Assembly: GCA_964447765.1 (NCBI GenBank)
Contig: CAYUTO010000003.1
Span: forward strand, 72,919-136,918
Reading direction: 5' to 3'
DNA: 64,000 nucleotides
Source of the DNA: an uncultured Gammaproteobacteria bacterium
GTDB lineage: Bacteria; Patescibacteriota; Patescibacteriia; Magasanikbacterales; UBA922
Position numbers and translations under genes: made by a program
Part shown: positions 17,797-51,080 of the stretch, piece after piece
How the letters are laid out: every line of letters starts with the position of its first letter
Numbering within the stretch: position 1 is the stretch's first letter
The notes under the pieces: model-generated
What the model was told of the DNA's origin: nothing
Databases searched by the model: none
The model's input: the letters and a program-made list of their open reading frames with translations, nothing else

Positions 17797-18918
17797 ATGA
17801 TCCACACACATAAAAAAATACTTATTGTTTCCCTTTCGGCAGGGTCAGGTCATATCCAGACTGCTAAAGCGCTTGAAAAAGCTGCTAAACTTGATTTTCC
17901 CGAACTTGAGTGTAGGCACATCGACATTGCTGACTATATTACCCCCTTGCTCAAAAAAACTACGGTTGAAGGATATGATTTTCTCGTATCCCATCTTCCC
18001 AAAGTCTGGTCTGGATTATTCCGAATCTCTGATAATAAGGTATTTATAAAAACATATCATGCTCTTACTGATTACCTAAAAATGCTTAGTTCATTTGAAT
18101 TTCTTCAGGAAGTCGAAAATTTTGCACCCGACCACATTATCACCACTCATTTTTTACCTTCGGAAATTTTGGCACACGCCATGAAAAAACGCAGCAAAGC
18201 TGTTCCTATTACTCAAATAGTTACCGACTACGGTCTACACCCTATGATCGTGATTAATGGAGTAACAAATTATGTAGTGAGCACACCCGAGATGAAAGAG
18301 GAATTAATTCACACGCACAAAATCCCCTCTACCCGTATTCATGAATTTGGTATTCCGATTGACCCTGCTTTTTATCACACACCATCACTCGAAGAAGCAC
18401 GAGTGAAACTGAAACTACCCGAAGACAAACCTTTGGTTTTATTACTTTCTGGTGGAAGTGGAATGATTGAACTTGCCGATACTATCGAAGAATTATTTGC
18501 ACACTTACAGCTACCTACCGCTATAGTTGCAGTAACGGGGAAAAATAAAAAAATGCTTACTCGTATTTCGAAGCTCAGTCCACCAGCACACATTACCTAC
18601 ATCCCACTCGGCTGGACTGATGATATTTCTTCGCTTATGAAATTAGCTTCAGTTGTCGTAAGCAAACCAGGAGGACTCACGACTACCGAATGCACTGTGT
18701 CTCAGGTTCCTCTTATTGCCATTCATCCGATTCCTGGTCAGGAAGAATTTAATGTAGAATATTTGAAAAAAAATCATCTCGGTGACCACGCTCCAACTAC
18801 CAGAGACGTATTACCGCTTGTAACCCACTACCTCTCACAAAAGACTACAAAAAAAGACTACACACGGGTGCAGTCTGGTACACAATTACTAGAATTTATT
18901 TCACAATTGAAAACTTAG
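17797..18918 (+). CDS. GT28-family glycosyltransferase (MGDG synthase/MurG-like)
   Basis: N-terminal KILIVSLSAGSGHIQTAKAL (MGDG synthase/UgtP-like G-loop). C-terminal PGGLTTTE ... glycosyltransferase family 28 C-terminal pattern. Confidence 0.7.
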   Translation: MIHTHKKILIVSLSAGSGHIQTAKALEKAAKLDFPELECRHIDIADYITPLLKKTTVEGYDFLVSHLPKVWSGLFRISDNKVFIKTYHALTDYLKMLSSFEFLQEVENFAPDHIITTHFLPSEILAHAMKKRSKAVPITQIVTDYGLHPMIVINGVTNYVVSTPEMKEELIHTHKIPSTRIHEFGIPIDPAFYHTPSLEEARVKLKLPEDKPLVLLLSGGSGMIELADTIEELFAHLQLPTAIVAVTGKNKKMLTRISKLSPPAHITYIPLGWTDDISSLMKLASVVVSKPGGLTTTECTVSQVPLIAIHPIPGQEEFNVEYLKKNHLGDHAPTTRDVLPLVTHYLSQKTTKKDYTRVQSGTQLLEFISQLKT

Positions 18919-19388
18919 AATTCATCAGGATATGAATCATTATATCCAGGTGTTATCGGATTATTGATACTCCCATACAAACCCATATATATAAAGTAGG
19001 TGATACTATAAGCACCCAGTATTACCGCGGTTCCTGTTACACAATACATTAAAATTTTCTTTCCCGTCTCGATTTTTTCTTCATTACCACTGGAGGTCAT
19101 GATGACAAATCCTGCATACAAGGCCAAAGCAACAGCAATGATGCCCATTACACCCAAAAATGTTTTGATCAGTTTTGCCACGATTATTCGAGGGTCACTG
19201 TGTGTTAATTTGGCCCCCTTATCACCACCAAATGCATTGAGTTGTGCTTCCATTTCTGAACCTTGAAATTGCCCTGGTGTTTGAGTTGATGGGCTCGTAG
19301 CAAACACTATACTAGGCATACTTGAAAAAAGTATTCCGAGTAAGAATGTAGCACCTACGATCAATTTTTTTATTTTTTTCATATTCAA
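18915..19388 (-). CDS. T4SS-pilin-like (VirB2/TrbC-type) small secreted membrane protein, paralog 1 of 11
   Basis: Signal peptide, then two hydrophobic helices around a polar turn: IIAVALALYAGFVIMTSSGNEEKIETGKKILMYCVTGTAVILGAYSIT. Confidence 0.7.
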   Translation of the reverse strand: MNMKKIKKLIVGATFLLGILFSSMPSIVFATSPSTQTPGQFQGSEMEAQLNAFGGDKGAKLTHSDPRIIVAKLIKTFLGVMGIIAVALALYAGFVIMTSSGNEEKIETGKKILMYCVTGTAVILGAYSITYFIYMGLYGSINNPITPGYNDSYPDEF

Positions 19389-19397
19389 GCTTCAAAT

Positions 19398-19811
19398 TTA
19401 TTGTTGACCTATCGTTTCTGCAAGAATTCGGCTTGTTACAAAACTGGTGATGCTATATGCAGATAAAATAATAATAAGCCCAACAACTGCATAACCGATG
19501 ATTTTTTTTGCTTTTGATAGATTTTCTTCGTTACCCGCAGCTGTAAAAATCAGAAAGCCGGCATAGACCACCAACACCACAAACATAATTCCTAACAAGG
19601 ACAATACCAACTGGATTCCTTTGGCAACGGTAATACGAATATCTTGCGCTTCGGTACCATATCCTGCAGCTTGAGATCCAGCATTGAGCTGCCCCATGAT
19701 GTCTGGACCAGTAGTTGTTGCTAGAGCTCCTGCTGGCGAAAAAACAAATACTCCAAACATTAGGAATGAAGTAAAAAGTACACGCACAGCTAGTGCTTTC
19801 ATTTTTTGCAT
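19398..19811 (-). CDS. T4SS-pilin-like protein, paralog 2
   Basis: LSLLGIMFVVLVVYAGFLIFTAAGNEENLSKAKKIIGYAVVGLIIILSAYSIT; same architecture. Confidence 0.7.
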   Translation of the reverse strand: MQKMKALAVRVLFTSFLMFGVFVFSPAGALATTTGPDIMGQLNAGSQAAGYGTEAQDIRITVAKGIQLVLSLLGIMFVVLVVYAGFLIFTAAGNEENLSKAKKIIGYAVVGLIIILSAYSITSFVTSRILAETIGQQ

Positions 19812-19815
19812 ATTT

Positions 19816-20238
19816 TTATGGTGTGGCGGCAGGAGTCGGAGTAGTTGGAGTACTTACTGATCCTTCCAATACTCGTGGAACTACAAATCTGGTAATACTA
19901 TAAGCTGCCATGAGAATGATGAGTCCTATTACTGCTCGACCTATAATATTTTTCGCCTTAGTAACTTGCTCGTCTTCTCCTAGTGCCATCATCCAAAGGT
20001 AGCCAGCGTATACGATGAGTACGGTGAATAGTACTCCTAATACTGAAAATAATACGGTGATCAGTCTTCCAATATTTTCTGCTAATGTTGTCTCTGTTGC
20101 TTTTACAAACCCTGCTTGCGTTCCTGCTTTATGCACATCATCAATACCTAGATTTTGAGTATAGACAGTAGTACTTAATAGACCAGAAAATAGAAACGCG
20201 GCTAACAAAAAAATTTTAACAGTTTGTAGTTTTTTCAT
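19816..20238 (-). CDS. T4SS-pilin-like protein, paralog 3 (C-terminal T/P-rich tail)
   Basis: Start at MKKLQTVK. VLFTVLIVYAGYLWMMALGEDEQVTKAKNIIGRAVIGLIILMAAYSIT ... TPTTPTPAATP. Confidence 0.65.
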   Translation of the reverse strand: MKKLQTVKIFLLAAFLFSGLLSTTVYTQNLGIDDVHKAGTQAGFVKATETTLAENIGRLITVLFSVLGVLFTVLIVYAGYLWMMALGEDEQVTKAKNIIGRAVIGLIILMAAYSITRFVVPRVLEGSVSTPTTPTPAATP

Positions 20239-20239
20239 A

Positions 20240-20635
20240 TTATTGACCACTAAATCGTGACGTAATAAACACGGTGATTGCATATGATGATACCACAATA
20301 AACAGCCCCATGATTGATGATTTGATAATTTCTTTTGCTTTATTCACTTGCTCGTCCTCTCCTCCTGCAGTCATCCAGAGATACCCTGCGTAGACAGTAA
20401 GCACTAGGAATATAATACCTACCAGACTCAACACTGTTTTTATCACATTTCCTACCACGACAGTTAGGTCAGTAGGCACATTTCCCCCAATACCTTTTTG
20501 TAAATTCTTCAGATTATCGTCTGCATTGCCCAAATTTTGATTTGTGCCCATTACTCGACTTGGTAATGCCATAATACTGAGAGATATCAGAACTCCTCGT
20601 ATCCAGTATTTTTTTACGCTATTAATAATTTTCAT
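20240..20635 (-). CDS. T4SS-pilin-like protein, paralog 4
   Basis: LSLVGIIFLVLTVYAGYLWMTAGGEDEQVNKAKEIIKSSIMGLFIVVSSYAIT. Confidence 0.7.
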   Translation of the reverse strand: MKIINSVKKYWIRGVLISLSIMALPSRVMGTNQNLGNADDNLKNLQKGIGGNVPTDLTVVVGNVIKTVLSLVGIIFLVLTVYAGYLWMTAGGEDEQVNKAKEIIKSSIMGLFIVVSSYAITVFITSRFSGQ

Positions 20636-20650
20636 AACTAGTTCAAATTA

Positions 20651-21061
20651 CTATCCAAAATTGATTGCATTGGTTATAAATGCTGCAATAGCATATGCAC
20701 TCACCGTGATTATCAATCCAATGATTGCAGCAATTAATGTCTGGCGAGATTTGGCGATTTTTTCTTCTTCTCCTCGAGCGAGGAACCAGGTGATTCCCGC
20801 ATAGAGTGTGAGGACAAAGAATAAAAGACCTAATATTCCAAATAGCCACTGCGCGACTGATCCAATATATGTCGCTATTTCGTTTTTTGGTAACCCGGTA
20901 GGCCCTACCGCTGATTCCAGTGCTGCCCCCGCATCTTCGATGGTTTTTTTGGCGTGTACCTTATTAAAAAACAACAATGAAGCTGCCACAGCAAGAGGAA
21001 TACTCAGAAACAAGGTTTTAATTTTTGAATAGACCCACATGTTTAAATAATTTATTTTCAT
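20651..21061 (-). CDS. T4SS-pilin-like protein, paralog 5
   Basis: LFGILGLLFFVLTLYAGITWFLARGEEEKIAKSRQTLIAAIIGLIITVSAYAIA. Confidence 0.7.
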   Translation of the reverse strand: MKINYLNMWVYSKIKTLFLSIPLAVAASLLFFNKVHAKKTIEDAGAALESAVGPTGLPKNEIATYIGSVAQWLFGILGLLFFVLTLYAGITWFLARGEEEKIAKSRQTLIAAIIGLIITVSAYAIAAFITNAINFG

Positions 21062-21218
21062 TAGTTTATTCTTAATCCCCCTATAGAAGGACTAAACACT
21101 TAATTGACCTTATTTAATAACGTGGTTTTTTACATTAAACAGAGGTTACTACGTTACGCTCATCTTTTATTTTATTAACGTAAATAGCTTCTCCCATACT
21201 GCTCATCCGCGAGCTCGA

Positions 21219-21767
21219 TTACGTATCTACACACAAACTTGCTTCATTCGGATCACTACTGTCACACTCCCAACCTGACTCTACTGTACAAGTTGCACTA
21301 CACCCATCTCCTGGATTTGTATTTAAATCGTCACATTCTTCAGCACCTTCTCTTTTTCCGTTTCCACATACCGTTCCTGTAGGTGTTGTCTGAGTAGTAG
21401 TGCCTCCACTATTTGATCCAAGCTTAAACACAAAGTTAGTAAGGGCGTATGCTCCGATAACAATGATAATTCCGATTGTCGCAGCAATAATTGTATTTAG
21501 GGCTTTTTCTGTCGTCTCTGAACTACCTCTCGCCGTCATCCAGAGAATACCCCCGTATAGCACGAGCACAAAGAATAGAACCGAAATCATCGAAAGCAGC
21601 GTTCCAATGATATTACCCGCAATAGTTGGAACACTATCTCCGTAGGTATCAAGCTTTGCTGCACTTGCTGTATCTTTCAGCCCAAAATCATTAGCAAGAA
21701 CGGTAGTGCCGAAAGCGAAAATTGAGAATGCTGCGATAAGACCGATAAGTAAATACACTTTTTTCAT
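21219..21767 (-). CDS. T4SS-pilin-like protein, paralog 6, with C-terminal Myxococcus-type cysteine-rich repeat
   Basis: Start at MKKVYLL. Pilin core LLSMISVLFFVLVLYGGILWMTARGSSETTEKALNTIIAATIGIIIVIGAYAL. Tail CGNGKREGAEECDDLNTNPGDGCSATCTVESGWEC matches the CxxGxxExxEECDDGNxxxGDGCSxxC repeat pattern. Confidence 0.65.
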   Translation of the reverse strand: MKKVYLLIGLIAAFSIFAFGTTVLANDFGLKDTASAAKLDTYGDSVPTIAGNIIGTLLSMISVLFFVLVLYGGILWMTARGSSETTEKALNTIIAATIGIIIVIGAYALTNFVFKLGSNSGGTTTQTTPTGTVCGNGKREGAEECDDLNTNPGDGCSATCTVESGWECDSSDPNEASLCVDT

Positions 21768-21786
21768 AAGAAAAAATTGATTAATT

Positions 21787-22242
21787 TCATGGAGAGTAGC
21801 CCGATGTTCCTGATGAGTATTGATTTCCACATGACGTGCCAATAGTCTCACAAAGAGAACGCAATACAAAACTCATAATAGAGTACGATGCCATAATAAT
21901 CACAAGTCCCATGACCGCAGCGCTTAGTATTTTTTTTGCACTGCCCACCTTCTCATCATTACCTCCTGCGGTCATCCAGGTGAACCCAGCGTAGAGAACA
22001 ATAATCACGGCAATGATCCCTAATAGACTCAAGGCAAAATTGATAATACGCACCGTAATAATACGAGGATCTTCCGCACTCAACCCTGAGTACTGTGTCC
22101 CTGCACAATCAAGCCCTAGAATGTCACCTGCACCTGTCTGTCCATCACAACCTTGCGCCAAGGATTTCACTGGAAAAAAGGCTATAATTAGAGCAAAACA
22201 AATAACTGAGAAAAGAGTTGCGAGAACTAATTTTTTATTCAT
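21787..22242 (-). CDS. T4SS-pilin-like protein, paralog 7
   Basis: Start at MNKKLV; the longer ORF extension upstream is rejected. ALSLLGIIAVIIVLYAGFTWMTAGGNDEKVGSAKKILSAAVMGLVIIMASYSIM; Cys pairs lie N- and C-terminal of the core. Confidence 0.65.
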   Translation of the reverse strand: MNKKLVLATLFSVICFALIIAFFPVKSLAQGCDGQTGAGDILGLDCAGTQYSGLSAEDPRIITVRIINFALSLLGIIAVIIVLYAGFTWMTAGGNDEKVGSAKKILSAAVMGLVIIMASYSIMSFVLRSLCETIGTSCGNQYSSGTSGYSP

Positions 22243-22343
22243 ACAGAATAGGTGAGAGTCAAAGCTTTCCTGGCCAGTAACGTGCCTATGACCAGTGAAA
22301 GCTCTGACACCCGTATGGGTGCCTGAGTCTGACAACTGTATTT

Positions 22344-22760
22344 TTACGCTTCTTCGACAGCTGTCTGAATAGAATTGATAAAGAAATTTGCAATTGCGTA
22401 TGCAGATAGAATGATCGCGAGACCAATCACTGCAGCAATGATAATTTTCTTTGCAGCTTCTACACTTTCGTCGTTTCCGCCGGCGGTCATCCACTTGAAA
22501 CCACCCCAGAGGATCAATATAACTGCGATTAAACCTAGGAACGTCAATGCGAGGTTGATAATATTTACTACTACCGCGCGCGCATCAGTTTCTTCAGTAC
22601 TGATGTTTAAACCAGTCGTTGGCTCAATTCCAAATGGATCATCAGAACCATTTCCTGTTGCCAAACTTACCTTTGGTGACAACGTAAACACCGTTACCAA
22701 AGCTACAATACCAAGCATGATATTTCTATGCTTTAGTAATTTTGCTTGTATGTTTTTCAT
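22344..22760 (-). CDS. T4SS-pilin-like protein, paralog 8
   Basis: ALTFLGLIAVILILWGGFKWMTAGGNDESVEAAKKIIIAAVIGLAIILSAYAIA. Confidence 0.7.
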   Translation of the reverse strand: MKNIQAKLLKHRNIMLGIVALVTVFTLSPKVSLATGNGSDDPFGIEPTTGLNISTEETDARAVVVNIINLALTFLGLIAVILILWGGFKWMTAGGNDESVEAAKKIIIAAVIGLAIILSAYAIANFFINSIQTAVEEA

Positions 22761-22837
22761 ACTCCCTCACCCCCCTTCAATTTTTTACATGTTTTATGCA
22801 TAATATTCACTAGTGTGATATGTATATACGTAGATTA

Positions 22838-23245
22838 TTAGTTTGGACTAGCTTGTAGAGTATTCAAAATCAACGTAATTATAGCATAGCTACTGAAAAT
22901 CACAATAATTCCAATCCCAGCCCAGAGCATAGCTTGTAAACCCTTCTGAATCCTTTCAGAATTCCCTGCTGAAGTGAGCCAAAGCACACCTCCATATACG
23001 AATACTACGAAGGTGATTGAACCGATGATTCCCATGATAGCCCCAATGCTATTCCCAATAATCGTTTTAATATCTGTTGTTGCAAGTGGATTGGTAAGTG
23101 AGACACAATCTTGTCCTTCACGACAACCGATCGTTGGAGTACTCGAGGCCAAGGCTAATTGAAAATTACTAACACTCACCAGAGTGCTTAGTATAATTAC
23201 CATAATTCCGACTAACTTTGTCCTATTTTTTTTCATATCAACCAT
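22838..23245 (-). CDS. T4SS-pilin-like protein, paralog 9
   Basis: IMGIIGSITFVVFVYGGVLWLTSAGNSERIQKGLQAMLWAGIGIIVIFSSYAII. Confidence 0.7.
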   Translation of the reverse strand: MVDMKKNRTKLVGIMVIILSTLVSVSNFQLALASSTPTIGCREGQDCVSLTNPLATTDIKTIIGNSIGAIMGIIGSITFVVFVYGGVLWLTSAGNSERIQKGLQAMLWAGIGIIVIFSSYAIITLILNTLQASPN

Positions 23246-23257
23246 ACTGGTGCCAAA

Positions 23258-24349
23258 TTAGGAAGTAATCCCGATAGCTTTTACAATAAAACTTACTAAT
23301 ACATACGCTGAAAACGCGATAATCATACCTACCGTTGCTGCGACCAATATTTGTTTTCCTTGTCCTACTTTTTCTGAATTTCCAAATGATAGAACCATAG
23401 TGAGTCCACCATAGACAAAGAACGCAAATCCAAGACCAGCTATAATACCAAATAACCAAGTTGCTACGTTTACACCCAATTGCACCAAATCTTCTACGTT
23501 GCGACATGACCCAGTAAATGCGCAGGAAGGAAGTGGACCTTGATAACCATCTGGTGCCTTATATCGTTCAGCAATATACTGGTCAATTGCTTTTGACACC
23601 TCCACTTCAGTCGTTTTCTTTACACATGTATTATTTTCTCCTGTCGTACAATGTCGTGCAGCCGAACAAACGTCTGAGGGTAATTGAGTACAATCGATAC
23701 TTGAGTCATCTTTTGCAAGACATTTAGCCCCAGCTACTTGCCAAAAACATTGAGAGTTCGCTTCACACGTTGACTTGTCTTTCCCATTATTTTGAGCACA
23801 TATTCCAACTGGATTTTCTAGCTGCTGCTCGAGAGAAGCCGTTGCTACATAATACACCTGAAAATCCATATTTAACCCCGCATCTTCTCCTTCAAAATAG
23901 TAACGAGTAAACACACCTGAAGAAGGTACGTATGGTGTAGCATGATAGGTTATACTTGCCGGCTGATTGTCGTCTTGGGTGGTATTCCAACTCAAAGTCG
24001 AATTTCCATTATCAGATTTTTCTTCCCTTACATATTCTCCTCGTTGCAATTTATCTGCATTCTGTTTGATAAAACGACTGCTGTCACGGAGATTTACCCA
24101 CTCCACAACTGAAGTATTATTTGCCACCTCGACACAAAAAATTTCAAATGCAGTCCCTGGGACATTGGGGTCTGCCAACACACTGTCATTATTCCCAATA
24201 GAAAAAATAAGTAATTTATGATTTTCTCGTGCAAATGATTGACACTTTCCCCCTGTAAATTCTGACGCACTTACTTGTTGCGCGCTAAAAAGACACACTA
24301 CGCTCAACAAAGTTAACCAGAATATTTTGTGAATTTTTTCTAAGCGCAT
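23258..24349 (-). CDS. Large Cys-rich secreted protein with C-terminal T4SS-pilin-like domain, paralog 10
   Basis: Signal peptide, ~280 aa ectodomain with more than 14 Cys, then LFGIIAGLGFAFFVYGGLTMVLSFGNSEKVGQGKQILVAATVGMIIAFSAYVLV. Confidence 0.65.
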   Translation of the reverse strand: MRLEKIHKIFWLTLLSVVCLFSAQQVSASEFTGGKCQSFARENHKLLIFSIGNNDSVLADPNVPGTAFEIFCVEVANNTSVVEWVNLRDSSRFIKQNADKLQRGEYVREEKSDNGNSTLSWNTTQDDNQPASITYHATPYVPSSGVFTRYYFEGEDAGLNMDFQVYYVATASLEQQLENPVGICAQNNGKDKSTCEANSQCFWQVAGAKCLAKDDSSIDCTQLPSDVCSAARHCTTGENNTCVKKTTEVEVSKAIDQYIAERYKAPDGYQGPLPSCAFTGSCRNVEDLVQLGVNVATWLFGIIAGLGFAFFVYGGLTMVLSFGNSEKVGQGKQILVAATVGMIIAFSAYVLVSFIVKAIGITS

Positions 24350-24351
24350 AC

Positions 24352-25737
24352 TTAATACGTTTGTTGAATTTTTGCTGCACCATTGAGAATCACCGTCTTA
24401 TCTTTCTTGAGTGTCTCCTGTTCAGTATTTCCTGGTCTCAAAAATTCGGTAATTAAATCTTTCATAGTTGAAACTGCAATATCACTTTCCCGGCCCCGAT
24501 ACCAATTATCAGCGAATAGCGCTTGTGTTGCAAAAGGTTCCATTGTTTCATCTGTTTGCTGCTCTGCAATCTGTTCTCGGTACGGACTTGGTCTAAAGGT
24601 TGCAGTGGTATACGTTTTTACTTTTTCTTTTGAAGTGATAAATCTCACAAAATCCCAGGCCTCATTCTGGTATTTTGATTTCTTTACTACTGATTCGAGC
24701 CAATAGTTTGCAACATTGGAAGGGGAACTTGGATTCAGCTGTGGCACAGTTGTAATCTGGATATCCAGTTGCGGTGCTCGTTCTTTTATCCGAGGATAAT
24801 CATAGGCAAATCCAAGAAAAAACGCGCTTTTCCCTCGTACAAATTCATCAAATGCATTTTGTTGTTTTTCATTCCAGCTATATCGATCAGCGGTAGCGCG
24901 CGCAAATCCCGTATAGAAATCTAGTGCACGAAGCATCGGATGCGATCGATCTTGTGCACGATCAACACCCGCAGCAAAAGTAACCGACTGCTGACTTACT
25001 GGAATAACACCACTCTGCATCATAAAGAGAGACACAATATCAAAAAAATTATCAATATTATTTGAGGTACCAAGTGCTACTCCTGACTGAGTAATATCAA
25101 GAGTTGAATTGAATTTGGTAGTTTTTTGTATTGCCTCCACAAATTCTTCCCAAGTAGCAGGAGCTTCAGCAATTCCTGCTCGATCAAGGAGTGTTTGATT
25201 GTAAAATAATGCAAGAGAGTCAAACGCAATCGGGAGCCCATAAATTTGTCCATCGATTACCACGTCCTTGTGAACCGACTGTACGTACTCATTTCGAATA
25301 TCCCGTTCACGAGGCAATGGCACGGTATCGATTACCACAGCCATTTCTTTGGTATATTTATTTTTCTCTACCAAACGAGGTACTTGCACACTCGCAGGTG
25401 CTGCAGATAGCCTATTCTGATTTTTACGTAGCCAGCGAACGTGCATTGAAACAATGTCAGGTCCCACATCATCTGCAAGTGCATTGGTGAACAATGTATC
25501 AAATTCTTCGTAACGAACCTGACGAATGTTGATCGTTACTTGAGGTCGCATCGCTTTGTATTCTGCGGCATATTTCTTCAGCTCATCCACATCATTAAAT
25601 ACAGTCCAATAGTTCAAAGTAACACCTCTCACCGATGTTTGTTCTTCGGCAGTCAAACCTTTGCAACCAAAACCAGAAAAAAGCAACATGGTGCTGAGCA
25701 AAGAAAGAGATAGTATGGATTTTGTGATTTTTCTCAT
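24352..25737 (-). CDS. Extracellular solute-binding protein (ABC-type, family 1 sugar-binding-like), probable lipoprotein
   Basis: Lipobox-like LLFSGFGC after a signal sequence. Overall periplasmic-binding-protein pattern. No permease or ATPase genes adjacent. Confidence 0.65.
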   Translation of the reverse strand: MRKITKSILSLSLLSTMLLFSGFGCKGLTAEEQTSVRGVTLNYWTVFNDVDELKKYAAEYKAMRPQVTINIRQVRYEEFDTLFTNALADDVGPDIVSMHVRWLRKNQNRLSAAPASVQVPRLVEKNKYTKEMAVVIDTVPLPRERDIRNEYVQSVHKDVVIDGQIYGLPIAFDSLALFYNQTLLDRAGIAEAPATWEEFVEAIQKTTKFNSTLDITQSGVALGTSNNIDNFFDIVSLFMMQSGVIPVSQQSVTFAAGVDRAQDRSHPMLRALDFYTGFARATADRYSWNEKQQNAFDEFVRGKSAFFLGFAYDYPRIKERAPQLDIQITTVPQLNPSSPSNVANYWLESVVKKSKYQNEAWDFVRFITSKEKVKTYTTATFRPSPYREQIAEQQTDETMEPFATQALFADNWYRGRESDIAVSTMKDLITEFLRPGNTEQETLKKDKTVILNGAAKIQQTY

Positions 25738-25752
25738 AAAATTTAGAGGAGA

Positions 25753-25822
25753 AATTAAAGATTAAAGATTGAATAAACGGAATATTAGTCTTTAATCTTT
25801 AATTTTTAATTTTTATTCTTTA
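25753..25822. repeat. Intergenic palindromic repeat, family R2 (aagattaaagatt/aatctttaatctt words)
   Basis: aaattaaagattaaagattg ... agtctttaatctttaatttttaatttttattcttt. Confidence 0.65.
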
Positions 25823-25823
25823 A

Positions 25824-26519
25824 CTACCTAAATATCTCAAACACGAAATCCACTAGTGCGTAGCTTGCAAAAATTAACACAACTCCTAGACCTGCCCATA
25901 ATATTGTCTCACGAGCTTTCTGTGTGCGTTCTGAATTTCCTCGTGCGGTCATCCAAGTAATTCCTCCATACAACATCATTACTAATGCAACAGTTCCAAT
26001 TACTCCCATAACTCCTCGAATGATAATTCCAATCAGATCCTCCACATTATCGACTTTGAGTTTATTGAGTTCGTCTGCATATTGCGTAAATGATGCAGAT
26101 GGAGATGTTTCACGAGCCACATCTTCAAGACATTTTTCAATACTAGGTTTTTCCGTACACGGCGCACAATTCCCTGGTGTCACAATACTTCCCCCTGCTG
26201 CGCTGTCTCCATACTTGATGCATTGGCTCCCGCACTGACAGGCCCCACTCGGATAGGTAATACCACCTGCTTGGCAGGCTGCTTTTGTTTCAAAAACTCG
26301 GTCTATTTGAGGATTGCAAAAAGTTTCCAACCACTCAGTAGTAATTGTTCCTACTCCTTGTATTCCATTTAAAGTAGGAACAGCATCTCCTACTCCATAA
26401 CATACCCCACTTATTTTACAGACCTGAACTAACGCTAATGCTTTATCTGAAAAAAATAACGTACTCATCAATATTACCAGCACCACAATCATTTTTGAAC
26501 TCCTTTGAAATAAACGCAT
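25824..26519 (-). CDS. Cys-rich secreted protein with C-terminal T4SS-pilin-like domain, paralog 11
   Basis: Signal peptide, ~130 aa Cys-rich region (CKISGVCYG ... CQCGSQC ... CAPCTEKPSIEKC), then IGTVALVMMLYGGITWMTARGNSERTQKARETILWAGLGVVLIFASYALV. Confidence 0.65.
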   Translation of the reverse strand: MRLFQRSSKMIVVLVILMSTLFFSDKALALVQVCKISGVCYGVGDAVPTLNGIQGVGTITTEWLETFCNPQIDRVFETKAACQAGGITYPSGACQCGSQCIKYGDSAAGGSIVTPGNCAPCTEKPSIEKCLEDVARETSPSASFTQYADELNKLKVDNVEDLIGIIIRGVMGVIGTVALVMMLYGGITWMTARGNSERTQKARETILWAGLGVVLIFASYALVDFVFEIFR

Positions 26520-26537: not shown

Positions 26538-27374
26538 CTATAGTAAACCCTCTTTCTTGGCAAAATGTATTGCAGTTTTCAGTAATGCTATTTTATTTCC
26601 AGTATCAAAATATTCTCCCTCATATTCATACGCAAAAAATTTCTTTTTCTTTGCCAGAGTATTTGCTGCGTCAGAAAGCCAAATTTCTCCATCTTTTCCT
26701 TCTACTTGAGAATCAAGAATTGCCCAAATATCATTGGTAAAAATATAACGCATTCCCCCAACGATCAAACCTAATGGAGAAACTGCTTCAGGCGTAGGTT
26801 TTTCACGAAATTCATTTACCCGGTAAACACCCTTTCCTAATGGTTTTCCATATACATTACCGTACTTTCTCATCTCTTCAGTATTATCCATTTTTTGAAC
26901 ACCAATTACTGAAGCTTTCTTTTTATAAAAAATATCTAGCAGTTGCTGTATGACAGGAGTTTTAGCATCAATAATACTATCACCATCTGAGAAGGCGAAT
27001 GGTTCATCTCCTACAAACTCTTTTGCACACAATAATGCATGCCCATTCCCTCGCGGCTCAGCTTGTCTGGTATAAAAAAATCGTACTTTTTCACTTAAAT
27101 CTATGAGAGATTGTATGCGATCGAGCTTTCCCTGACTTTCCAAATATGCCTCAAAATCACGATCACGATCAAAATGATCTTCTATCGCACGCTTTTGAGA
27201 GCTCGTAACAAAAATGATTTCAGTAATTCCACTTGCTACCATTTCTTCTACAATATATTGAAGTACTGGTTTATCAAGTACTGGTAACATTTCTTTTGGC
27301 ATGGCTTTGGTAGCTGGAAGAAACCGCGTACCCAAACCTGCGACAGTGATTACACCTTTACGAACTTTTTTCAT
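26538..27374 (-). CDS. galU: UTP-glucose-1-phosphate uridylyltransferase
   Basis: KGVITVAGLGTRFLPATKAMPKEMLPVLDKPVLQYIVEE N-terminus; diagnostic for GalU. Confidence 0.85.
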   Translation of the reverse strand: MKKVRKGVITVAGLGTRFLPATKAMPKEMLPVLDKPVLQYIVEEMVASGITEIIFVTSSQKRAIEDHFDRDRDFEAYLESQGKLDRIQSLIDLSEKVRFFYTRQAEPRGNGHALLCAKEFVGDEPFAFSDGDSIIDAKTPVIQQLLDIFYKKKASVIGVQKMDNTEEMRKYGNVYGKPLGKGVYRVNEFREKPTPEAVSPLGLIVGGMRYIFTNDIWAILDSQVEGKDGEIWLSDAANTLAKKKKFFAYEYEGEYFDTGNKIALLKTAIHFAKKEGLL

Positions 27375-27505: not shown

Positions 27506-28888
27506 TTATTTCACCTCTTCCCAACTAATAAGTTCATACGTAGAACCCACTGGAAAGCCAGGTGGTGGATAATATTTCAAATTACCATCGTACACATGGT
27601 TGGTGTAATAGTACCCTGATACTACTTGCCCCCCTGTATTAATATATTTCCAACCCCCACCAGCATATGAAATTTGAGACCCAAAAAAGGTAAGCGAATT
27701 TTTGAGAGCACCTGCATGCTCATTCGGATTATAGTATGGGGTAAAAATTTTTCCATATTGTGTCAGCGCAGCTGCATTAATCTCCAGATTAGTTGGTGCT
27801 TCATACGGCACAATAATATCACCCTGAGCAATGATACCGATCACATCATCGCTTGATTTTTGTTTTTGCAATAAATTATTCGAAATAAACACTTCTTTCT
27901 GATTACTTGGTACAGGGAAATTACCTACACCGATAGTTATTCTCCCGTCTACAGTTCCTTGCAACCATGTATTATCTTCAATAAACATTACCCCGTTTGC
28001 CGGAAGCGTATACGTACCTATTGTAGTTTTGGTACCAATATCATAGCAATACGTGGTCCCATTCCAATACCACCCCGACCAACTTGATCTCCAACTTCCT
28101 TCGCCATAATAACAATCTCTGGTATTTACCCGGTACACGGTATATTGGGTATTATTAAATATAATTTGGTATCCTTCTGCCCCAGAAGAAGCCAAATATT
28201 TTCCGCCATTCTGAGCAGCAGTACGAATAGCTGAGAGATCAGCAGATACTGAACCAAAATCAGCCGCAGGAACAGGAAATTCCCAATAATAGGTAGGTCC
28301 ACCAGTCCCCCAGATTCCAGGCCTTGTAGTGCCTTGGTAATTATAGGTAGACTTTGCACTCCTGACCCATGAGTCAGTTGTACCATCAAATTTGATTCCG
28401 CCATTCGACATAATCTCTCCATGCACCTCGGTCGTAGCACTAAATGACATATCAACGTTTTGTATAAAGGCACTATCTGTAAACGAAGGGAAGCCTAATC
28501 GCACCTTTAGAGCCCGGTTTGCATTTGGAGAAGAAACCACCGTTCCCGTAGACGCAACGGCGATGACTGAAGAGTTTGGTAGTGGGGTTGAAATATTAAT
28601 TGCATAACTTCCAACAACATCATTAAACTTATCTTTTACCGTATGAACATACGGGCCAGGTTGTCCTGTGCCGTCAGTAAAATCTGTTGGATTATGCGCT
28701 AGATGCCAACGATAATAATTGATACCTGCCTCAGCAATATGAAACGTCACATCTCGACGATAATATTCCAGTGAAATTCTATGTTCAAATAGAGCATAGC
28801 TCAAAATACCCAACACCATAATCACAAAAGCAATCGAACCAAAAACCATGACGATGAGAAGTGTATTGCCGGCGTATTTTTTTATCAT
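27506..28888 (-). CDS. N-terminally anchored extracellular protein (possible pilus tip/PilX-like component), W/Y/G/T-rich
   Basis: Single N-terminal TM (LLIVMVFGSIAFVIMVLGILSYALF), then a ~430 aa aromatic/Gly-rich domain. Last gene of the minus-strand pilin operon. Confidence 0.45.
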   Translation of the reverse strand: MIKKYAGNTLLIVMVFGSIAFVIMVLGILSYALFEHRISLEYYRRDVTFHIAEAGINYYRWHLAHNPTDFTDGTGQPGPYVHTVKDKFNDVVGSYAINISTPLPNSSVIAVASTGTVVSSPNANRALKVRLGFPSFTDSAFIQNVDMSFSATTEVHGEIMSNGGIKFDGTTDSWVRSAKSTYNYQGTTRPGIWGTGGPTYYWEFPVPAADFGSVSADLSAIRTAAQNGGKYLASSGAEGYQIIFNNTQYTVYRVNTRDCYYGEGSWRSSWSGWYWNGTTYCYDIGTKTTIGTYTLPANGVMFIEDNTWLQGTVDGRITIGVGNFPVPSNQKEVFISNNLLQKQKSSDDVIGIIAQGDIIVPYEAPTNLEINAAALTQYGKIFTPYYNPNEHAGALKNSLTFFGSQISYAGGGWKYINTGGQVVSGYYYTNHVYDGNLKYYPPPGFPVGSTYELISWEEVK

Positions 28889-28897
28889 AGGAGCGTT

Positions 28898-29012
28898 TAG
28901 TCGAAAGTCGAAAAGTCTGTAAAGTTATAAAGTCGAGAGGTGGAATGAAAAGCGTTTTCCATGACTTTCACCCTGCCGACAGGCAGGACTTTATAGACTT
29001 TTTTGACTTCGT
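28898..29012. repeat. Intergenic palindromic repeat, family R1
   Basis: agtcgaaagtcgaaaagtctgtaaagttataaagtcgag ... gactttatagacttttttgacttcgtgactc, with a central ccctgccgacaggcagg hairpin. Confidence 0.7.
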
Positions 29013-29019
29013 GACTCTA

Positions 29020-29643
29020 TTAATTCGTTTTCAAATTTCTGATATGAGTAAGTGATTCGACCCTCAAGGGCACTGGACTTTTAGTCACATCCTTTTCGAT
29101 TTCAATAATAATTTTTATCATTCGGATATTGGTAAGAGTAATCGGGAGAGTCATCGCAGCTTGTGACCCCGTATATGATTCTGTAAAATACTGAAATGTT
29201 GGTGTGCCTCTACTTGCGTTTTGCACATAACTTGCAATAGTAGTGATTTGCTCCTGACCTGTATAACTCAGGGGATTTCCACTTGGTTTCAATATTCCTC
29301 TCCTCAAATCAGTACCTGAAAGCCAATAACGCACCCGCTCACGTAAACTATCTCCATCAATATTTGCATACACCGTGAGAGATGAAGTGGTAGCCTGTGC
29401 AACTGGATACGAACCAATACTCGATTGTTCGGCAGTTCTAATCGTATTGACGATTTCAGAAATTACACGACGAGCGTCTTTTTGACCAAATAATTGATCA
29501 TTGAGTATGCGCTGATTGCGAAAACTCAATATGATAAATGATGTAGCTCCCAACATTACAATCATAGTGATTCCTAATACCACTGATACTTCAATCAAGC
29601 TCATGCCCCGAGTATACTCACTTTTTTTTGTAAAAACTTTCAT
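29020..29643 (-). CDS. Prepilin-type N-terminal cleavage/methylation domain protein (pseudopilin/minor pilin)
   Basis: Class III signal RG|MSLIEVSVVLGI at the N-terminus. Confidence 0.7.
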   Translation of the reverse strand: MKVFTKKSEYTRGMSLIEVSVVLGITMIVMLGATSFIILSFRNQRILNDQLFGQKDARRVISEIVNTIRTAEQSSIGSYPVAQATTSSLTVYANIDGDSLRERVRYWLSGTDLRRGILKPSGNPLSYTGQEQITTIASYVQNASRGTPTFQYFTESYTGSQAAMTLPITLTNIRMIKIIIEIEKDVTKSPVPLRVESLTHIRNLKTN

Positions 29644-31442
29644 AGTGAAGTTAACTCTGTAATAATAAAATGATCAGTCGTGACTTGAAAAATATCTTCA
29701 TGATCTTGATATCCAACAGCCTCAACACGGATCGTATATTCTCCTGCGGCCAGATTTCCTACATACACCTGCCCAGGAGGAGTGCAGGCGTTGGTGTACA
29801 CAAAAGTAAGATCGGACAATAACGGCGAAACAGCAGAATCGATCGTATCAAAATATACTCGATACCTCATGTATCGCTCACCATCATGAGTATCAGAAAT
29901 ATTTACACTACTTTGTGTAAAATACGTACCACCTGTTCCGTCAGGCCCTACAAATACCCAATTTTGTCCCGTACTTGAAGGACTTGTTGCCATTTGAAAA
30001 CGAACCGTGGTTGAAGGTGACTGAGCCATTGGGTTCCATGACCAGATGATATAGCGGGCATTTTCTCCGGTATCAATTGTTGATGATTCGAGATATCCGT
30101 TTGAAACATATACGCTACCATTTCGTGAAAGCGTTAGATTCCCTGGACTAGTAAGCGCATCAATACCACTTCCTGAACTATACCCTAATCCTGTACCAAA
30201 GCTTTCATTATTAGAGCCTCCCGACCAATCAGTCTGTGAAATACTTCCAACTCCAGTATTTTTTACTACTGAAAATCCGTTTGGTCCGGTAATTGTTACC
30301 GTAGCATTTGCAATAGGCGCTGACTGGTGTTCAGCTAGTATGATTAGCGATCTATTTGTATTTGGTCCCACAATCAATGTTCCCACCTCTGCTGCACCAG
30401 GTAATACAGTCATAGGCACATCGGGAATAGTCCCTAGAAGATCATATCCTGTTACTGATAAGCCATAGCTATCCCATGGTACATTCAAGTTCGATTTCAC
30501 TCCATTCCCATCAGTAGTATAGCTTTGATTTATCAGATATACACTCGGATTTGCTCCAATCATACGACTTCCCTTTATCTGAAAAGGAACATTTGGTACG
30601 ACATTACACTGAGCATTTTTCGTTTCTACACTTACACTGGATAATTCATCAATTGTAAGTGTTAGATTACTCACTGCTTGCTTAAGAATCGTCACATTCG
30701 GACTTGTAGGATTTGGGTTGGTTGAACTTGGTGCGTAGGTTTTATCCGTTGTGTAACCTGTCTTTGTAGCTTGTATAAAATATTTTGCAGTACCGGTGAC
30801 TAAATCATAAATACGCAAAAATCCATTATTATCAGTAGTATCAACAAAGTTGTAAGAAGGATTAGTGCTTGTTGCAATTACGGTCACCGATGCACCAGTA
30901 ACCGGATTTCCATAAGCGTCTATTACTTGAACAAACAATGCACCGTGATTGAGATTACCTTCAAGATATTTAGGTGCAATATAGGTATACATTGAGAAAG
31001 GTTCAGCTTGATCGCATGAAATACATCGTGCCTCAATCTGAACAAATTTATAATCATTTGGTGCAGTATCAGTAGGAGTTCCCCCGATCAAACCATCAAA
31101 CGGATCATCAATATTTCGGATGGTTCGAATGATTTCAAAACGCATCCCATTTCGGATAGTAGTGGTAGTATACTCAAACACGCCCGAAGGACTCCCATTG
31201 ATAATTCCCACGCTCTCAAATGGCGCATTATGCATAATTTCCATCTGCTCATTGAGGACTGCCGTTGCAAGAATACGAACGCGAGAATGATACACCAATG
31301 AAAAACTCAATTGGATACTCCCAAAAATTCCTACGATAAATAGACCAAAAATACCGAGTGCTACTACCGCCTCAATCAATGTAAATCCTCTCGATATAGA
31401 TGTTGATTTCATCAAAAAACGATTATAGGACACTTGACTCAC
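29640..31442 (-). CDS. Large prepilin-like protein (type IV pilin N-terminus, ~600 aa)
   Basis: SRG|FTLIEAVVALGIFGLFIVG N-terminal motif, then a long T/S/N/G-rich beta-type domain. Confidence 0.7.
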   Translation of the reverse strand: MSQVSYNRFLMKSTSISRGFTLIEAVVALGIFGLFIVGIFGSIQLSFSLVYHSRVRILATAVLNEQMEIMHNAPFESVGIINGSPSGVFEYTTTTIRNGMRFEIIRTIRNIDDPFDGLIGGTPTDTAPNDYKFVQIEARCISCDQAEPFSMYTYIAPKYLEGNLNHGALFVQVIDAYGNPVTGASVTVIATSTNPSYNFVDTTDNNGFLRIYDLVTGTAKYFIQATKTGYTTDKTYAPSSTNPNPTSPNVTILKQAVSNLTLTIDELSSVSVETKNAQCNVVPNVPFQIKGSRMIGANPSVYLINQSYTTDGNGVKSNLNVPWDSYGLSVTGYDLLGTIPDVPMTVLPGAAEVGTLIVGPNTNRSLIILAEHQSAPIANATVTITGPNGFSVVKNTGVGSISQTDWSGGSNNESFGTGLGYSSGSGIDALTSPGNLTLSRNGSVYVSNGYLESSTIDTGENARYIIWSWNPMAQSPSTTVRFQMATSPSSTGQNWVFVGPDGTGGTYFTQSSVNISDTHDGERYMRYRVYFDTIDSAVSPLLSDLTFVYTNACTPPGQVYVGNLAAGEYTIRVEAVGYQDHEDIFQVTTDHFIITELTSL

Positions 31443-33558: not shown

Positions 33559-35319
33559 GTGCTATACTATGCACTGATTAGTCGAGCATCAACTCACTTT
33601 CTTATGTTACCTTTGGAAGAGTTCAAAAAACTTCTTGCTAAAAAATTTAAATTAACCGCGGCACAAATTGCTACCCATCTTGAAGATGCACAAAACCGAG
33701 GTCGCGATTTGGAAACGTACCTGATTGAAAAGAACGTGGTAAAAGAAGATGCTTTGTACGAAGCGGTCGCAGAAGAATATGGATTGTCTCGAGTTTCCTT
33801 AAAAGGACGCGATATTCCTTCTGAAACATTACATGAATTACCTGAAGCTTTTGCTGAAGCGCACCGTATTGTAGCATTTGAAAGTACACCAACGTCCCTC
33901 AAAATTGCCCTTACTGATCCGACCGATGTACAAACTATCGAATTTATACGCAGAAAAAGTAGAAAAGACCTTGAAGTCTTTATTACCACTCCTCGCGAAA
34001 CCAAAGAAGCTTTGCGTAGGTACCGCTCAAACCTCAAACAAGAACTGAGCCAACCGCTTGCACACTCAGATCCTACAGACCTCAAAAAAGCTGCTGAGGA
34101 ACTTCCGATTATTAATATTGTTAATTCGATTCTCGAACATTCGGTATTCGAGAACTCTAGTGATATTCATATCGAACCGACTGAACTCGATGTGGTTGTT
34201 CGATTTCGTATTGATGGAATCCTACGCGAAATGATGCACTTACCGAAAGCGGTGCAGAGCGGTATTGTTGCCCGAATTAAAATTCTTTCAAACTTAAAAA
34301 TTGATGAACACATGATTCCGCAGGATGGACGATTTAAAATCTCTGTTCAAGGAGAAACATTATCGTTTCGTGTCTCAATCATTCCAGTGTATGACGGAGA
34401 AAAGATTGTCATGCGTCTTCTCCATGAAGGACAAAAACCGTTAACACTCGATGAACTTGGATTTTTACCTGGAATCAAAGAGCTTGTTGATGAGGCGATT
34501 GAAAAACCGCACGGCATGGTATTAGTTACAGGTCCTACCGGATCAGGAAAAACGACGACGCTTTATTCCATATTGGGAATGCTCAATCAGCCCGATGTAA
34601 ATATCTGCACGATTGAAGATCCGATCGAATACCACGTAACGGGTATTAATCAAAGTCAGATTAATCCTAAAGCTGGATTTACCTTTGCATCAGGACTTCG
34701 TTCGTTCCTTCGTCAAGATCCTGACATTATCATGGTGGGAGAAATTCGTGACAAGGAAACTGCGGAAATCGCCATTCATGCTGCGATGACCGGACACTTA
34801 GTATTATCAACCCTACACACCAATGATGCGCCTACTACCATCCCCCGTTTACTCGACATGGATATTCCGCCATTCTTGGTTGCATTCACTGCAAATATCA
34901 TTATTGCACAACGATTGGTTAGAAAAATCTGCCCCAATTGCAAAGAGTCGTTTAAACTAACCGCGAAAGAATTAAAACAACTACACTCTCTCATTGATAA
35001 ATCAAAAATGACTACTCTTTTCAAAGAACATGGAGTAACACTCACTGCAAAAGAAAAAAATCTCGAATCACTCACCTTTTATCGTGGTAAAGGATGTAAA
35101 AAATGCGAAGGCTCTGGATACAAAGGTCGTATCGGAATTTATGAAGTAATGGTAATTGACGAAGAACTTCAAAAAATTATCAATACCAAAGCTAATGCAA
35201 ATGATATTAAAGCGCACGCTATAAAAAATGGCATGCTTACTCTATTTCAAGATGGACTCATAAAGTCAAAACAAGGTATGACGACTATCGAAGAAGTACT
35301 CCGCGCAAGCAAAGACTAA
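33559..35319 (+). CDS. pilB: Type IV pilus assembly ATPase PilB (GspE family)
   Basis: Walker A VTGPTGSGKTTT, Asp box, Walker B and His box, plus a C-terminal Cys tetrad (CPNC...CKKCEGSG). N-terminal GSPII_E_N-like domain. Confidence 0.9.
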   Translation: MLYYALISRASTHFLMLPLEEFKKLLAKKFKLTAAQIATHLEDAQNRGRDLETYLIEKNVVKEDALYEAVAEEYGLSRVSLKGRDIPSETLHELPEAFAEAHRIVAFESTPTSLKIALTDPTDVQTIEFIRRKSRKDLEVFITTPRETKEALRRYRSNLKQELSQPLAHSDPTDLKKAAEELPIINIVNSILEHSVFENSSDIHIEPTELDVVVRFRIDGILREMMHLPKAVQSGIVARIKILSNLKIDEHMIPQDGRFKISVQGETLSFRVSIIPVYDGEKIVMRLLHEGQKPLTLDELGFLPGIKELVDEAIEKPHGMVLVTGPTGSGKTTTLYSILGMLNQPDVNICTIEDPIEYHVTGINQSQINPKAGFTFASGLRSFLRQDPDIIMVGEIRDKETAEIAIHAAMTGHLVLSTLHTNDAPTTIPRLLDMDIPPFLVAFTANIIIAQRLVRKICPNCKESFKLTAKELKQLHSLIDKSKMTTLFKEHGVTLTAKEKNLESLTFYRGKGCKKCEGSGYKGRIGIYEVMVIDEELQKIINTKANANDIKAHAIKNGMLTLFQDGLIKSKQGMTTIEEVLRASKD

Positions 35320-35323
35320 TTAT

Positions 35324-36448
35324 ATGACAAGTTCTGCACTACGAAATGCATCACAATTAAAGGAAGCGCGTCCATCACGCCAATTTTTTAGTTCTCGACA
35401 TGTGAAAATTCCCATGGTTGATCGTATTTTTTTTCTCGATCATTTAAAAACCATGATTCATGCAGGACTCTCACTCATCGAAGCATTGCATGTGCTCGCA
35501 AAAGAAGCGCAGAATAAAAAATTTGCTCGTATTGTAAAGGAAATTACCGATCATGTAGAAAAAGGAAACCAACTAAGTGATAGTCTCATGCTCTATCCAA
35601 AAATTTTTCCTGATTTGCAAACAAAAATGATTGCGTCTGGTGAAATTGCAGGAAAACTTGAAGATGCACTCGATCAAGTGGTTGTGCAAATGAAAAAAAA
35701 TCATGCACTTGTTGCGAGTGTTAAAGGAGCGCTCATTTATCCTTCCGTAATTGTAGGTGCGATTCTCATTATTGGGATCCTCATGGTCACTATGGTCCTC
35801 CCTAAGCTTACCGCCATGTTTGATGAATTCGAGGCTGAACTCCCACTCTCAACCAAAGTGTTGATTGGTATTACAGACTTTTTGTCACAGCCACTCAATT
35901 TGATACTTGTCCTTGGTGTTACAGCTCTCTTTGTTACCCTCTTTATTGTCATGATAAAAAAGAATGTAGCCTTTAGGTATTTTATGCACGGGGTTATCCT
36001 CCACTTACCTATTTTTGGAGCGATTGTAAAAAAAGTTAATCTCGCACGATTTTCTATAACCTTATCATCCCTTCTCAAAAGTACTATTCCGATTGTCGAC
36101 GCCGTACGTATTGCTGGAGAAACATGCAAAAATGTCCGATACCGAGGAGCACTTCTCAATGCCACTGAAAACCTTTCCAAAGGTGAACAATTATCAGATA
36201 CTCTTGCTACCAGTCCAAAACTGTTTCCACCTATGGTAACTGAAATGGTGATGGTAGGAGAAAAAACGGGTGAAATAGATCATTTACTGCAAGAACTTGC
36301 ATCATTCTATTCAGACGAAGTTGATAAAACCATGAAAAATTTTTCAACCATTATTGAACCGGTGATTATTATTTTACTCGGCGTAGGTGTTGCAGGTATC
36401 GCTGTTTCCATCATCATGCCGATGTATTCACTCACCCAAGCTTTCTAA
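35324..36448 (+). CDS. pilC: Type IV pilus inner-membrane platform protein PilC (GspF family)
   Basis: Two GspF repeats, each with TM helices. Characteristic DALDQVV and PLLNATENLSKGEQLSD regions. Confidence 0.85.
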   Translation: MTSSALRNASQLKEARPSRQFFSSRHVKIPMVDRIFFLDHLKTMIHAGLSLIEALHVLAKEAQNKKFARIVKEITDHVEKGNQLSDSLMLYPKIFPDLQTKMIASGEIAGKLEDALDQVVVQMKKNHALVASVKGALIYPSVIVGAILIIGILMVTMVLPKLTAMFDEFEAELPLSTKVLIGITDFLSQPLNLILVLGVTALFVTLFIVMIKKNVAFRYFMHGVILHLPIFGAIVKKVNLARFSITLSSLLKSTIPIVDAVRIAGETCKNVRYRGALLNATENLSKGEQLSDTLATSPKLFPPMVTEMVMVGEKTGEIDHLLQELASFYSDEVDKTMKNFSTIIEPVIIILLGVGVAGIAVSIIMPMYSLTQAF

Positions 36449-36457
36449 ACTATTCAC

Positions 36458-50278: not shown

Positions 50279-50402
50279 AGACTATAACTAAATTAAACGT
50301 TTCCTTATTATAGCAGGGCACCCGATAGATTGCCTAGCCTACCAACAGGCAAAAACAAAATTCGCCCATAGTGCAGGCGAATTTTGTTTGTTTTAATCGA
50401 AG

Positions 50403-50885: not shown

Positions 50886-51080
50886 TTTTGACTCACCATT
50901 CATACACATACACGATATATTAAAAATAAGTGTAAACACGAGATTAGTGTACACTACTTTTACCTCTTATTCAAGAGATTGAGTAATGCTACAAAACCAG
51001 GTACAATGATTCACGTAACACATACTATAGCAGCGAAGACACAACACACACAACATACCCCTTATTTCCACTCAACCTCT

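Follow-up and report, generated by a model that had tools for sequence, protein, structure and literature searches.

We analyzed a 64-kb stretch of the chromosome of a member of Candidatus Magasanikbacteria (Patescibacteria, class ABY1), an uncultivated ultrasmall bacterium, and refer to this whole stretch as the window. The interval 23258-26519 consists of three co-directional minus-strand genes, which encode a 231-amino-acid (aa) protein (long pilin A), a solute-binding protein (SBP), and a 363-aa protein (long pilin B) (Table 1). Both long pilins carry a two-helix hairpin of the conjugative-pilin type behind a large cysteine-rich ectodomain, and both belong to an array of 11 pilin genes whose nine shorter members lie at 18915-23245. 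Genes in the A/B region are separated by gaps of 2 to 86 bp. An earlier note written from the sequence alone (here, the original prediction) had described two mosaic proteins of 363 and 231 aa within an array of 11 pilin genes, and both open reading frames (ORFs), which lie on the minus strand, and the gene count were confirmed; the SBP gene between the two pilins went unmentioned. All 11 non-SBP genes match Pfam family PF18895 or a custom hidden Markov model (HMM) of that domain (E 1e-27 to 1e-33), with the nine short pilins matching the custom HMM at E 1e-29 to 1e-33.

Table 1. Features of the long-pilin interval, the pilin array and the adjoining genes (nucleotide positions in the window; residues of the encoded protein where a domain is given)
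Feature	Residues	Position (nt)	Strand	Evidence or remark
GalU-like UTP-glucose-1-phosphate uridylyltransferase		26538-27374	-	NTP_transferase; 18 bp upstream of A
Long pilin A, 231 aa		25824-26519	-	PF18895, PF04956, NF045849; Cys positions; homologs
A signal peptide	1-30	26519-26430	-	Hydropathy
A 10-Cys ectodomain (~125 aa)	31-155	26429-26055	-	Cys positions
A VirB2-like hairpin	156-231	26054-25827	-	PF18895 / PF04956 / NF045849
ABC-type carbohydrate SBP, 461 aa		24352-25737	-	SBP_bac_8 and SBP_bac_1
Long pilin B, 363 aa		23258-24349	-	PF18895, 34 bits; 18-sequence alignment; AlphaFold2 (AF2) model
B signal peptide	1-28	24349-24266	-	Hydropathy
B distal beta-rich domain with helical insert, two invariant Cys	29-180	24265-23810	-	Alignment and AF2 model
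B 8-Cys stalk	181-245	23809-23615	-	Two C-x(7-10)-C-x5-C-x(7-8)-C units
B juxtamembrane helix and near-invariant motif PDGYxGPLPxCAFTGSCRxVEDL	246-288	23614-23486	-	
B VirB2-like hairpin	289-363	23485-23261	-	PF18895, aa 290-355
Short VirB2-like pilin, position 1, 135 aa		22838-23245	-	PF18895 / custom HMM
Short VirB2-like pilin, position 2		22344-22760	-	PF18895 / custom HMM
Short VirB2-like pilin, position 3		21787-22242	-	PF18895 / custom HMM
Short VirB2-like pilin, position 4, C-terminal Cys-rich tail		21219-21767	-	PF18895 / custom HMM
Short VirB2-like pilin, position 5		20651-21061	-	PF18895 / custom HMM
Short VirB2-like pilin, position 6		20240-20635	-	PF18895 / custom HMM
Short VirB2-like pilin, position 7		19816-20238	-	PF18895 / custom HMM
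Short VirB2-like pilin, position 8		19398-19811	-	PF18895 / custom HMM
Short VirB2-like pilin, position 9		18915-19388	-	PF18895 / custom HMM
Terminator-like hairpin and T-run		18855-18876	-	Directly after the last pilin gene
MGDG-synthase-type glycolipid glycosyltransferase		17797-18918	+	PF06925, 88.8 bits; convergent with the array end

The original prediction had placed a pilin-like two-helix domain at the extreme C terminus of both proteins, where we found it, without assigning it to a family. By sequence and topology, the hairpin of A and B belongs to the VirB2/TrbC/PF18895 family, that is, to the pilins of type IV secretion systems (T4SS) in Patescibacteria, whose arrays have already been published. 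The matches to PF18895 (T4SS_pilin; cutoff, 26.6) score 34 bits in B, over aa 290-355, and 36.3 bits in A, over aa 156-226, and all 18 B-type sequences match this family. Long pilin A also passes PF04956 (TrbC/VirB2; 30.4 bits against a cutoff of 27.9) and the NCBIfam model NF045849, "Mbov_0395 family pilin-like conjugal transfer protein" (score, 41 bits; cutoff, 40); B matched neither PF04956 nor any NCBIfam model. From its hydropathy, each protein has a signal peptide and, at the C terminus, a pair of hydrophobic helices with a short charged loop between them, the arrangement of VirB2 and TrbC. The loops of the two long pilins are SFGNSEKVGQGK and ARGNSERTQKAR, and their charged motif (GNSEK/GNSER) is the same as that found in the nine short paralogs. 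In the AF2 model of B (pLDDT 76.8), helices at residues 285-320 and 325-359, each of 35 to 36 residues, are joined by GNSEKVGQGK; as in conjugative pilins, helices of this length exceed the span of a bilayer. The model of A places the helices at 159-191 and 196-230. When the B model was searched with Foldseek, the best-scoring compact match aligned the hairpin with the Aeropyrum pernix conjugation pilus 8dfu, a weak hit (prob 0.69, TMt 0.64). The class III signal peptide/N-methylation motif PF07963 was matched by neither A nor B and was matched by the neighboring genes 29020-29643 and 29640-31442. NF045849, a model from Mycoplasma integrative conjugative elements, is passed by the position-1 pilin (22838-23245) as well as by A, and these matches tie the patescibacterial hairpin to the conjugation systems of wall-less monoderms.

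Ahead of the hairpin, the predicted Cys-rich ectodomains of about 280 and 130 aa were measured at ~260 aa with 12 Cys in B (mature ectodomain, aa 29-288) and ~125 aa with 10 Cys in A. We recovered eight full-length homologs of A (48-79% identity) and 17 of B (36-60%). All 10 ectodomain Cys of A are invariant across nine sequences; among 18 B-type sequences, every one of the 12 mature Cys is invariant except C242, which 17 of them retain, and a further Cys pair is present in many B homologs. Quantification of conservation along the proteins revealed a gradient toward the C terminus. For B, mean pairwise identity over the 18 sequences rises from 34% in the distal domain to 46% in the stalk, 61% in the juxtamembrane region, and 79% in the hairpin, with the signal peptide at 21%; the corresponding means for A are 55% in the ectodomain, 82% in the hairpin, and 30% in the signal peptide. 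The start codon of A is ambiguous. With ATG 26519 as the start, the signal peptide has a basic n-region that homologs share, and ATG 26492 (Met10), which has a canonical AAGGAG 7 nt upstream, is the start of the 222-aa NCBI protein P0034; mature A is identical from either codon.

Are these two proteins real, or are they frameshifted fusions of separate genes produced by assembly or annotation, the outcome that the original prediction had named as its refutation? Both are uninterrupted ORFs, and identical proteins are recorded on a 176.6-kb NCBI contig (P0001 and P0034). The sources label their homologs "pilin" of Candidatus Magasanikbacteria or Patescibacteria, and the assemblies behind these records (NCBI, JGI, ENA, and Logan) are independent. 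Because the full-length architecture and the Cys residues recur in these independent assemblies (~17 homologs for B and eight for A, at 36-79% identity), together with the synteny described below, A and B are intact; we found nothing in favor of an artifact and rejected it as extremely improbable.

The locus itself is conserved. In three related genomes the gene order runs from type IV pilus (T4P) minor pilins through a GalU-like NTP-transferase, a long pilin, the SBP, a second long pilin, and about nine short pilins to a convergent MGDG-type glycolipid synthase. The layout of A, SBP, B, and array was recovered in ~12 species when GTDB species representatives were scanned with the SBP as anchor. 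The best match of each of the 11 pilins in the window was the gene at the same position in other genomes, with orthologs 55-91% identical compared to 33-49% for paralogs within the window; the closest orthologs are 52-60% identical, a level at which synonymous sites would be saturated. This same-position orthology indicates that the array is an old, fixed set of distinct subunits and not the product of recent amplification.

Within this fixed framework, the outermost domains are replaced. All proteins at position B have the stalk and juxtamembrane region (about aa 160-281), whereas only 5 of 11 related loci share the distal domain of the window; elsewhere it is swapped, e.g., for an "F(S/T)CLNCGxGA" module that is repeated one to three times. 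At position A, the 10-Cys domain of the window is common to only three loci. The comparison with related genomes that the original prediction had proposed as a check on domain shuffling thus uncovered unrelated distal domains at the same A and B positions, and its modular "cargo on a pilin anchor" architecture was borne out, as evidenced by a conserved hairpin carrying a variable distal domain that is exchanged at the orthologous position. Quick divergence and outright swapping of the distal module are what would be expected of a ligand- or host-recognition surface. Length variation extends to two of the short pilins. Position 1 measures 135 aa in the window and 200-214 aa elsewhere, where it has an added Cys-rich extension. 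Position 4 (21219-21767) has the reversed order, in which a Thr/Gly-rich linker connects the hairpin to a C-terminal Cys-rich tail that is DUF4215-like (25 bits, under the cutoff of 27), and orthologs of this pilin carry C-terminal extensions of 62-211 aa.

In three sister loci, position A is occupied by an unrelated domain of ~270 aa ahead of a hairpin that is 54-86% identical (L001, 7412-8518; L002, 7284-8522; L004, 7389-8555). Its invariant HG, AHSAG, DGCYG, and His motifs resemble, by eye, the oxyanion hole and Ser-Asp-His triad of an alpha/beta-hydrolase. One potential explanation for the long pilins is therefore that their ectodomains are catalytic (e.g., host-envelope hydrolases) or are freed by proteolysis, with the pilin serving as an export or targeting module. 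Sequence searches of Pfam and PDB with the ~270-aa domain found nothing even at E = 10, however, and the alpha/beta-hydrolase reading, which consists of motifs without database support, was set aside. This domain is also absent from A in the window, whose 125-aa 10-Cys domain has no catalytic motif, and the sequence ahead of the first hairpin helix has neither a cleavage motif nor a hydrophobic segment, which leaves no indication of a signal-peptidase site. We regard display or release of enzymes or effectors as unlikely.

What, then, are the ectodomains of A and B? By BLAST they are similar neither to each other nor to other array members, in agreement with the claim that they resemble nothing else in the array. 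The domain searches suggested by the original prediction yielded no family or fold: Pfam and PDB sequence searches gave no ectodomain match for A or B, Foldseek with the B model gave no match below E = 0.1 in PDB or BFVD, and a Pfam scan of 10 homologs with alternative cargo found the pilin domain alone. A chance match of B to PF11912 (CfaA_B_C, Counting factor-associated) was discarded, as it scored 23.7 bits against a cutoff of 28.6 and occurred in 1 of 18 family members. An exhaustive search of 1.84 billion representative proteins with a profile of the B distal domain returned 16 relatives, 15 of which are long pilin fusions and one of which (P0055) stops before the pilin. A profile of the juxtamembrane region plus pilin (A6) returned only proteins of ≤200 aa, many of them on short contigs. 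The proposed "adhesin or toxin display" was accordingly not established by any domain match, and nothing points to a toxin; adhesion or receptor binding is what we infer from topology and the evolutionary pattern.

Our favored reading, to which we give roughly an even chance, is that A and B are VirB2-type pilins of modular build that serve, probably as minor or tip subunits, to display modules for binding or possibly for catalysis. VirB2-type pilins are seated in the membrane with their loop in the cytoplasm. Each long pilin would be exported by a cleavable Sec signal peptide, its C-terminal helix-loop-helix hairpin would insert in the membrane with the short charged loop (GNSEK/GNSER) in the cytoplasm, and the ectodomain, presumably stabilized by disulfides, would remain outside. 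The hairpin would then polymerize together with the nine adjoining short pilins to form a filament, or a tube across the envelope, of T4SS origin. The N and C termini lie outside and the loop faces the lumen in every conjugative pilus with a solved structure (bioRxiv 10.64898/2025.12.18.695078), and the ectodomains, which are N terminal, would for this reason be displayed outward. With ectodomains this bulky, A and B would more plausibly be scarce or tip/cap subunits than the principal building block of the shaft. In B, the conserved 8-Cys stalk and juxtamembrane collar may act as a spacer for the exchangeable distal module. Such distal modules would most likely bind host-cell or environmental ligands, and in some orthologs they are perhaps enzymatic.

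Several observations weigh against this reading. To our knowledge, an N-terminal domain of 260 aa is unprecedented for VirB2, and it might clash sterically with tight helical packing. The ectodomains have no binding or catalytic fold recognizable in Pfam, PDB, or BFVD, and the AF2 model of A was too poor (pLDDT 56.9) for its fold to be read and was dropped. Pfam searches for VirB4, VirB6, VirB3, and other T4SS core genes found none among the larger ORFs of the window or in the 3.6 kb beyond it, and the machinery nearest to the array is a different system, a T4P (PilB, PilC, PilM, and N-methyl pseudopilins). Finally, no pilus of a PF18895 protein has been visualized in any Patescibacterium (PMC12857230).

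The last two points, the T4SS core genes not found nearby and the pilus never seen, are also what would be anticipated if A and B never polymerize and are instead static surface proteins, with the hairpin co-opted as a membrane anchor, that act, e.g., as receptors or as partners of the SBP in nutrient capture. A membrane would accommodate bulky ectodomains more easily than a filament would, and the carbohydrate SBP encoded between A and B, 2 bp from B, belongs to a linkage with pilins that lasts in distant lineages (see below). However, the hairpin is 79-82% conserved among orthologs, far above what mere anchoring would lead one to expect from the 21-30% identity of the signal-peptide helix, and we take this difference to reflect constraints beyond membrane anchoring. 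The helices are 35 to 36 residues long and have kept the charged-loop motif of the family. This combination fits a polymerizing or machine-interacting module better than a plain anchor. In addition, the genes for A and B lie among, and are passed on together with, nine ordinary short pilins that form a fixed set. A purely anchoring role, the main alternative to our reading, is in our view a doubtful possibility, if one to be taken seriously.

If A and B are assembled as pilins, where is the T4SS? Patescibacteria encode a monoderm-type T4SS and, widely, VirB2-like arrays of 2 to 11 genes (PMC12102498), and Table S1 of that study records VirB4 in Magasanikbacteria genomes, including GW2011_GWA2_56_11, which carries the same pilin locus (L013). 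On the strength of these related genomes, a T4SS is likely to be encoded elsewhere in the source genome. A T4SS beside dnaA past the window end was considered and rejected, as that region has dnaN and a penicillin-binding protein instead. The dnaA gene itself lies at 62255-63643 (+), ~36 kb from the pilin array, with dnaN beyond the window end, and in a related locus (L006) rpmH, rnpA, and yidD are upstream of dnaA. Published T4SS loci of Patescibacteria are often near the origin, which may bear on the proximity of dnaA.

The SBP gene sits 2 bp upstream of B, and its place between A and B was kept at every locus examined. The protein gives weak matches to carbohydrate SBP models, and Cys25 behind a hydrophobic leader suggests that it is a lipoprotein. 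No permease or ATPase gene adjoins it. In distant lineages (Falkowbacteria, Buchananbacteria, and others; loci L018-L030), an SBP 35-42% identical to that of the window is followed by a short-pilin array. This recurrent linkage suggests that the pilin array is functionally tied to solute capture. The GalU-like gene (TIGR01099, 282.7 bits, under the cutoff of 326.8) and the MGDG-type synthase gene bracket the array, and related genomes have kept both neighbors. Since conjugative pili are polymers of protein and lipid, a glycolipid connection of the array is conceivable. The hairpin and T-run after the last pilin gene is the probable 3' end of the transcription unit of the array, a call that is a consensus match only, with such sites no more common in the region than in shuffled sequence.

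Two further sets of genes were noted. T4P genes adjoin the VirB2-like array at 27506-31442 (-) and 33559-37564 (+), an adjacency conserved across the order; they encode PilB, PilC, PilM, and an operon of N-methyl pseudopilins, including one of 600 aa with CarboxypepD_reg/Ig-like domains. At 49043-50954 (-), a gene for a DoxX/MauE-family membrane protein adjoins one for a pyridine-nucleotide-disulfide oxidoreductase, a pair that could form a thiol/disulfide system for oxidative folding of Cys-rich surface proteins.

How do the long pilins compare with systems already described? Quinonero-Coronel et al. (2025) cataloged 441 VirB2-like arrays (PMC12102498), and in Southlakia epibionticum the T4SS locus includes an array of six essential pilins, which is needed for epibiotic growth (Wang et al. 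2023, PMC10633639). The array described here shares with those of PMC10633639 and PMC12102498 the Pfam family, the signal peptide plus hairpin, the tandem divergent paralogs, the chromosomal location, and the phylum. In contrast to the described members, which are treated as small pilins, A and B bear Cys-rich N-terminal ectodomains of 125 to 260 aa, and their array adjoins T4P genes and not virB4. In the searchable parts of these two papers, we found no members with ectodomains, no 11-gene positional orthology, no ectodomain replacement, and no embedded SBP. A full-text literature search (PF18895, VirB2 in Patescibacteria, and related terms) likewise returned the array papers and no description of VirB2-like pilins with ectodomains. 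Thus, pilin arrays in Patescibacteria are already published, whereas the ectodomain-bearing members appear to be new. Searches for VirB2-like proteins commonly limit length to 50-150 aa, as one recent screen did, and A and B would have been overlooked by such a filter.

With VirB2, TrbC, TraA, and the Gram-positive PrgF (bioRxiv 10.64898/2025.12.18.695078), the long pilins share two long helices, a short charged loop, and an N terminus predicted to lie outside. They differ in size: classical mature pilins have ~65-100 aa, are often cyclized or acetylated, and have no folded ectodomain, whereas mature A has ~200 aa and mature B ~335 aa.

PilB and PilC of Streptococcus sanguinis are modular T4P minor pilins with grafted adhesive modules. 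The concept is shared, namely, a polymerization module fused to an exchangeable functional module in a minor subunit used for adhesion, but the likeness is an analogy only, as the pilin fold and machinery are unrelated. In the T4P pilins, a class III signal peptide goes with an N-terminal helix, and the graft is C terminal; in A and B, the signal peptide is of the Sec type, there is no N-methylation motif, and the graft is N terminal. The role proposed here, as a host-contact determinant at the pilus surface or tip, is also that proposed for the VirB5/TraC tip adhesins and for TrwL/TrwJ (VirB2/VirB5) of Bartonella, whose amplified paralogs have diversified in a manner linked to host range (cited in PMC12102498). 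A and B match no VirB5 family, however, and the adhesive module here would be fused to the VirB2 subunit itself.

Host recognition and exploitation by Patescibacteria are poorly understood, and VirB2-like arrays are essential in the one system tested. One review offers the speculation that cells take up material from the host through such a pilus (PMC12857230). In a bolder version of our favored reading, which we consider improbable as a whole, the long pilins would be the host-specificity determinants of a T4SS-derived multisubunit pilus, their stalk-held modules would dock onto the host envelope or enzymatically open it, and the SBP, GalU, and glycolipid synthase would be further parts of this apparatus, which would contain lipid and act as a conduit for the uptake of host-derived molecules. 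If this were true, A and B would represent the first adhesin or enzyme modules fused directly to VirB2 subunits, as well as a sequence-readable "host-range cassette" for uncultivated bacteria of the candidate phyla radiation (CPR).

Apart from that proposal, the long pilins could offer a natural scaffold for N-terminal display on a conjugative-type pilin, which would be of interest for protein engineering, and they form a modular class of VirB2-like proteins that is missed when searches filter by length. The conserved SBP, GalU, and glycolipid-synthase neighbors suggest that the pilin array is connected with sugar capture and membrane lipids in ways that can be put to the test. Their large outer domains evolve fast and are specific to species, while the gene positions in the conserved array stay fixed, and the long pilins are thus concrete candidates for the surface through which the apparatus of these arrays contacts the host.

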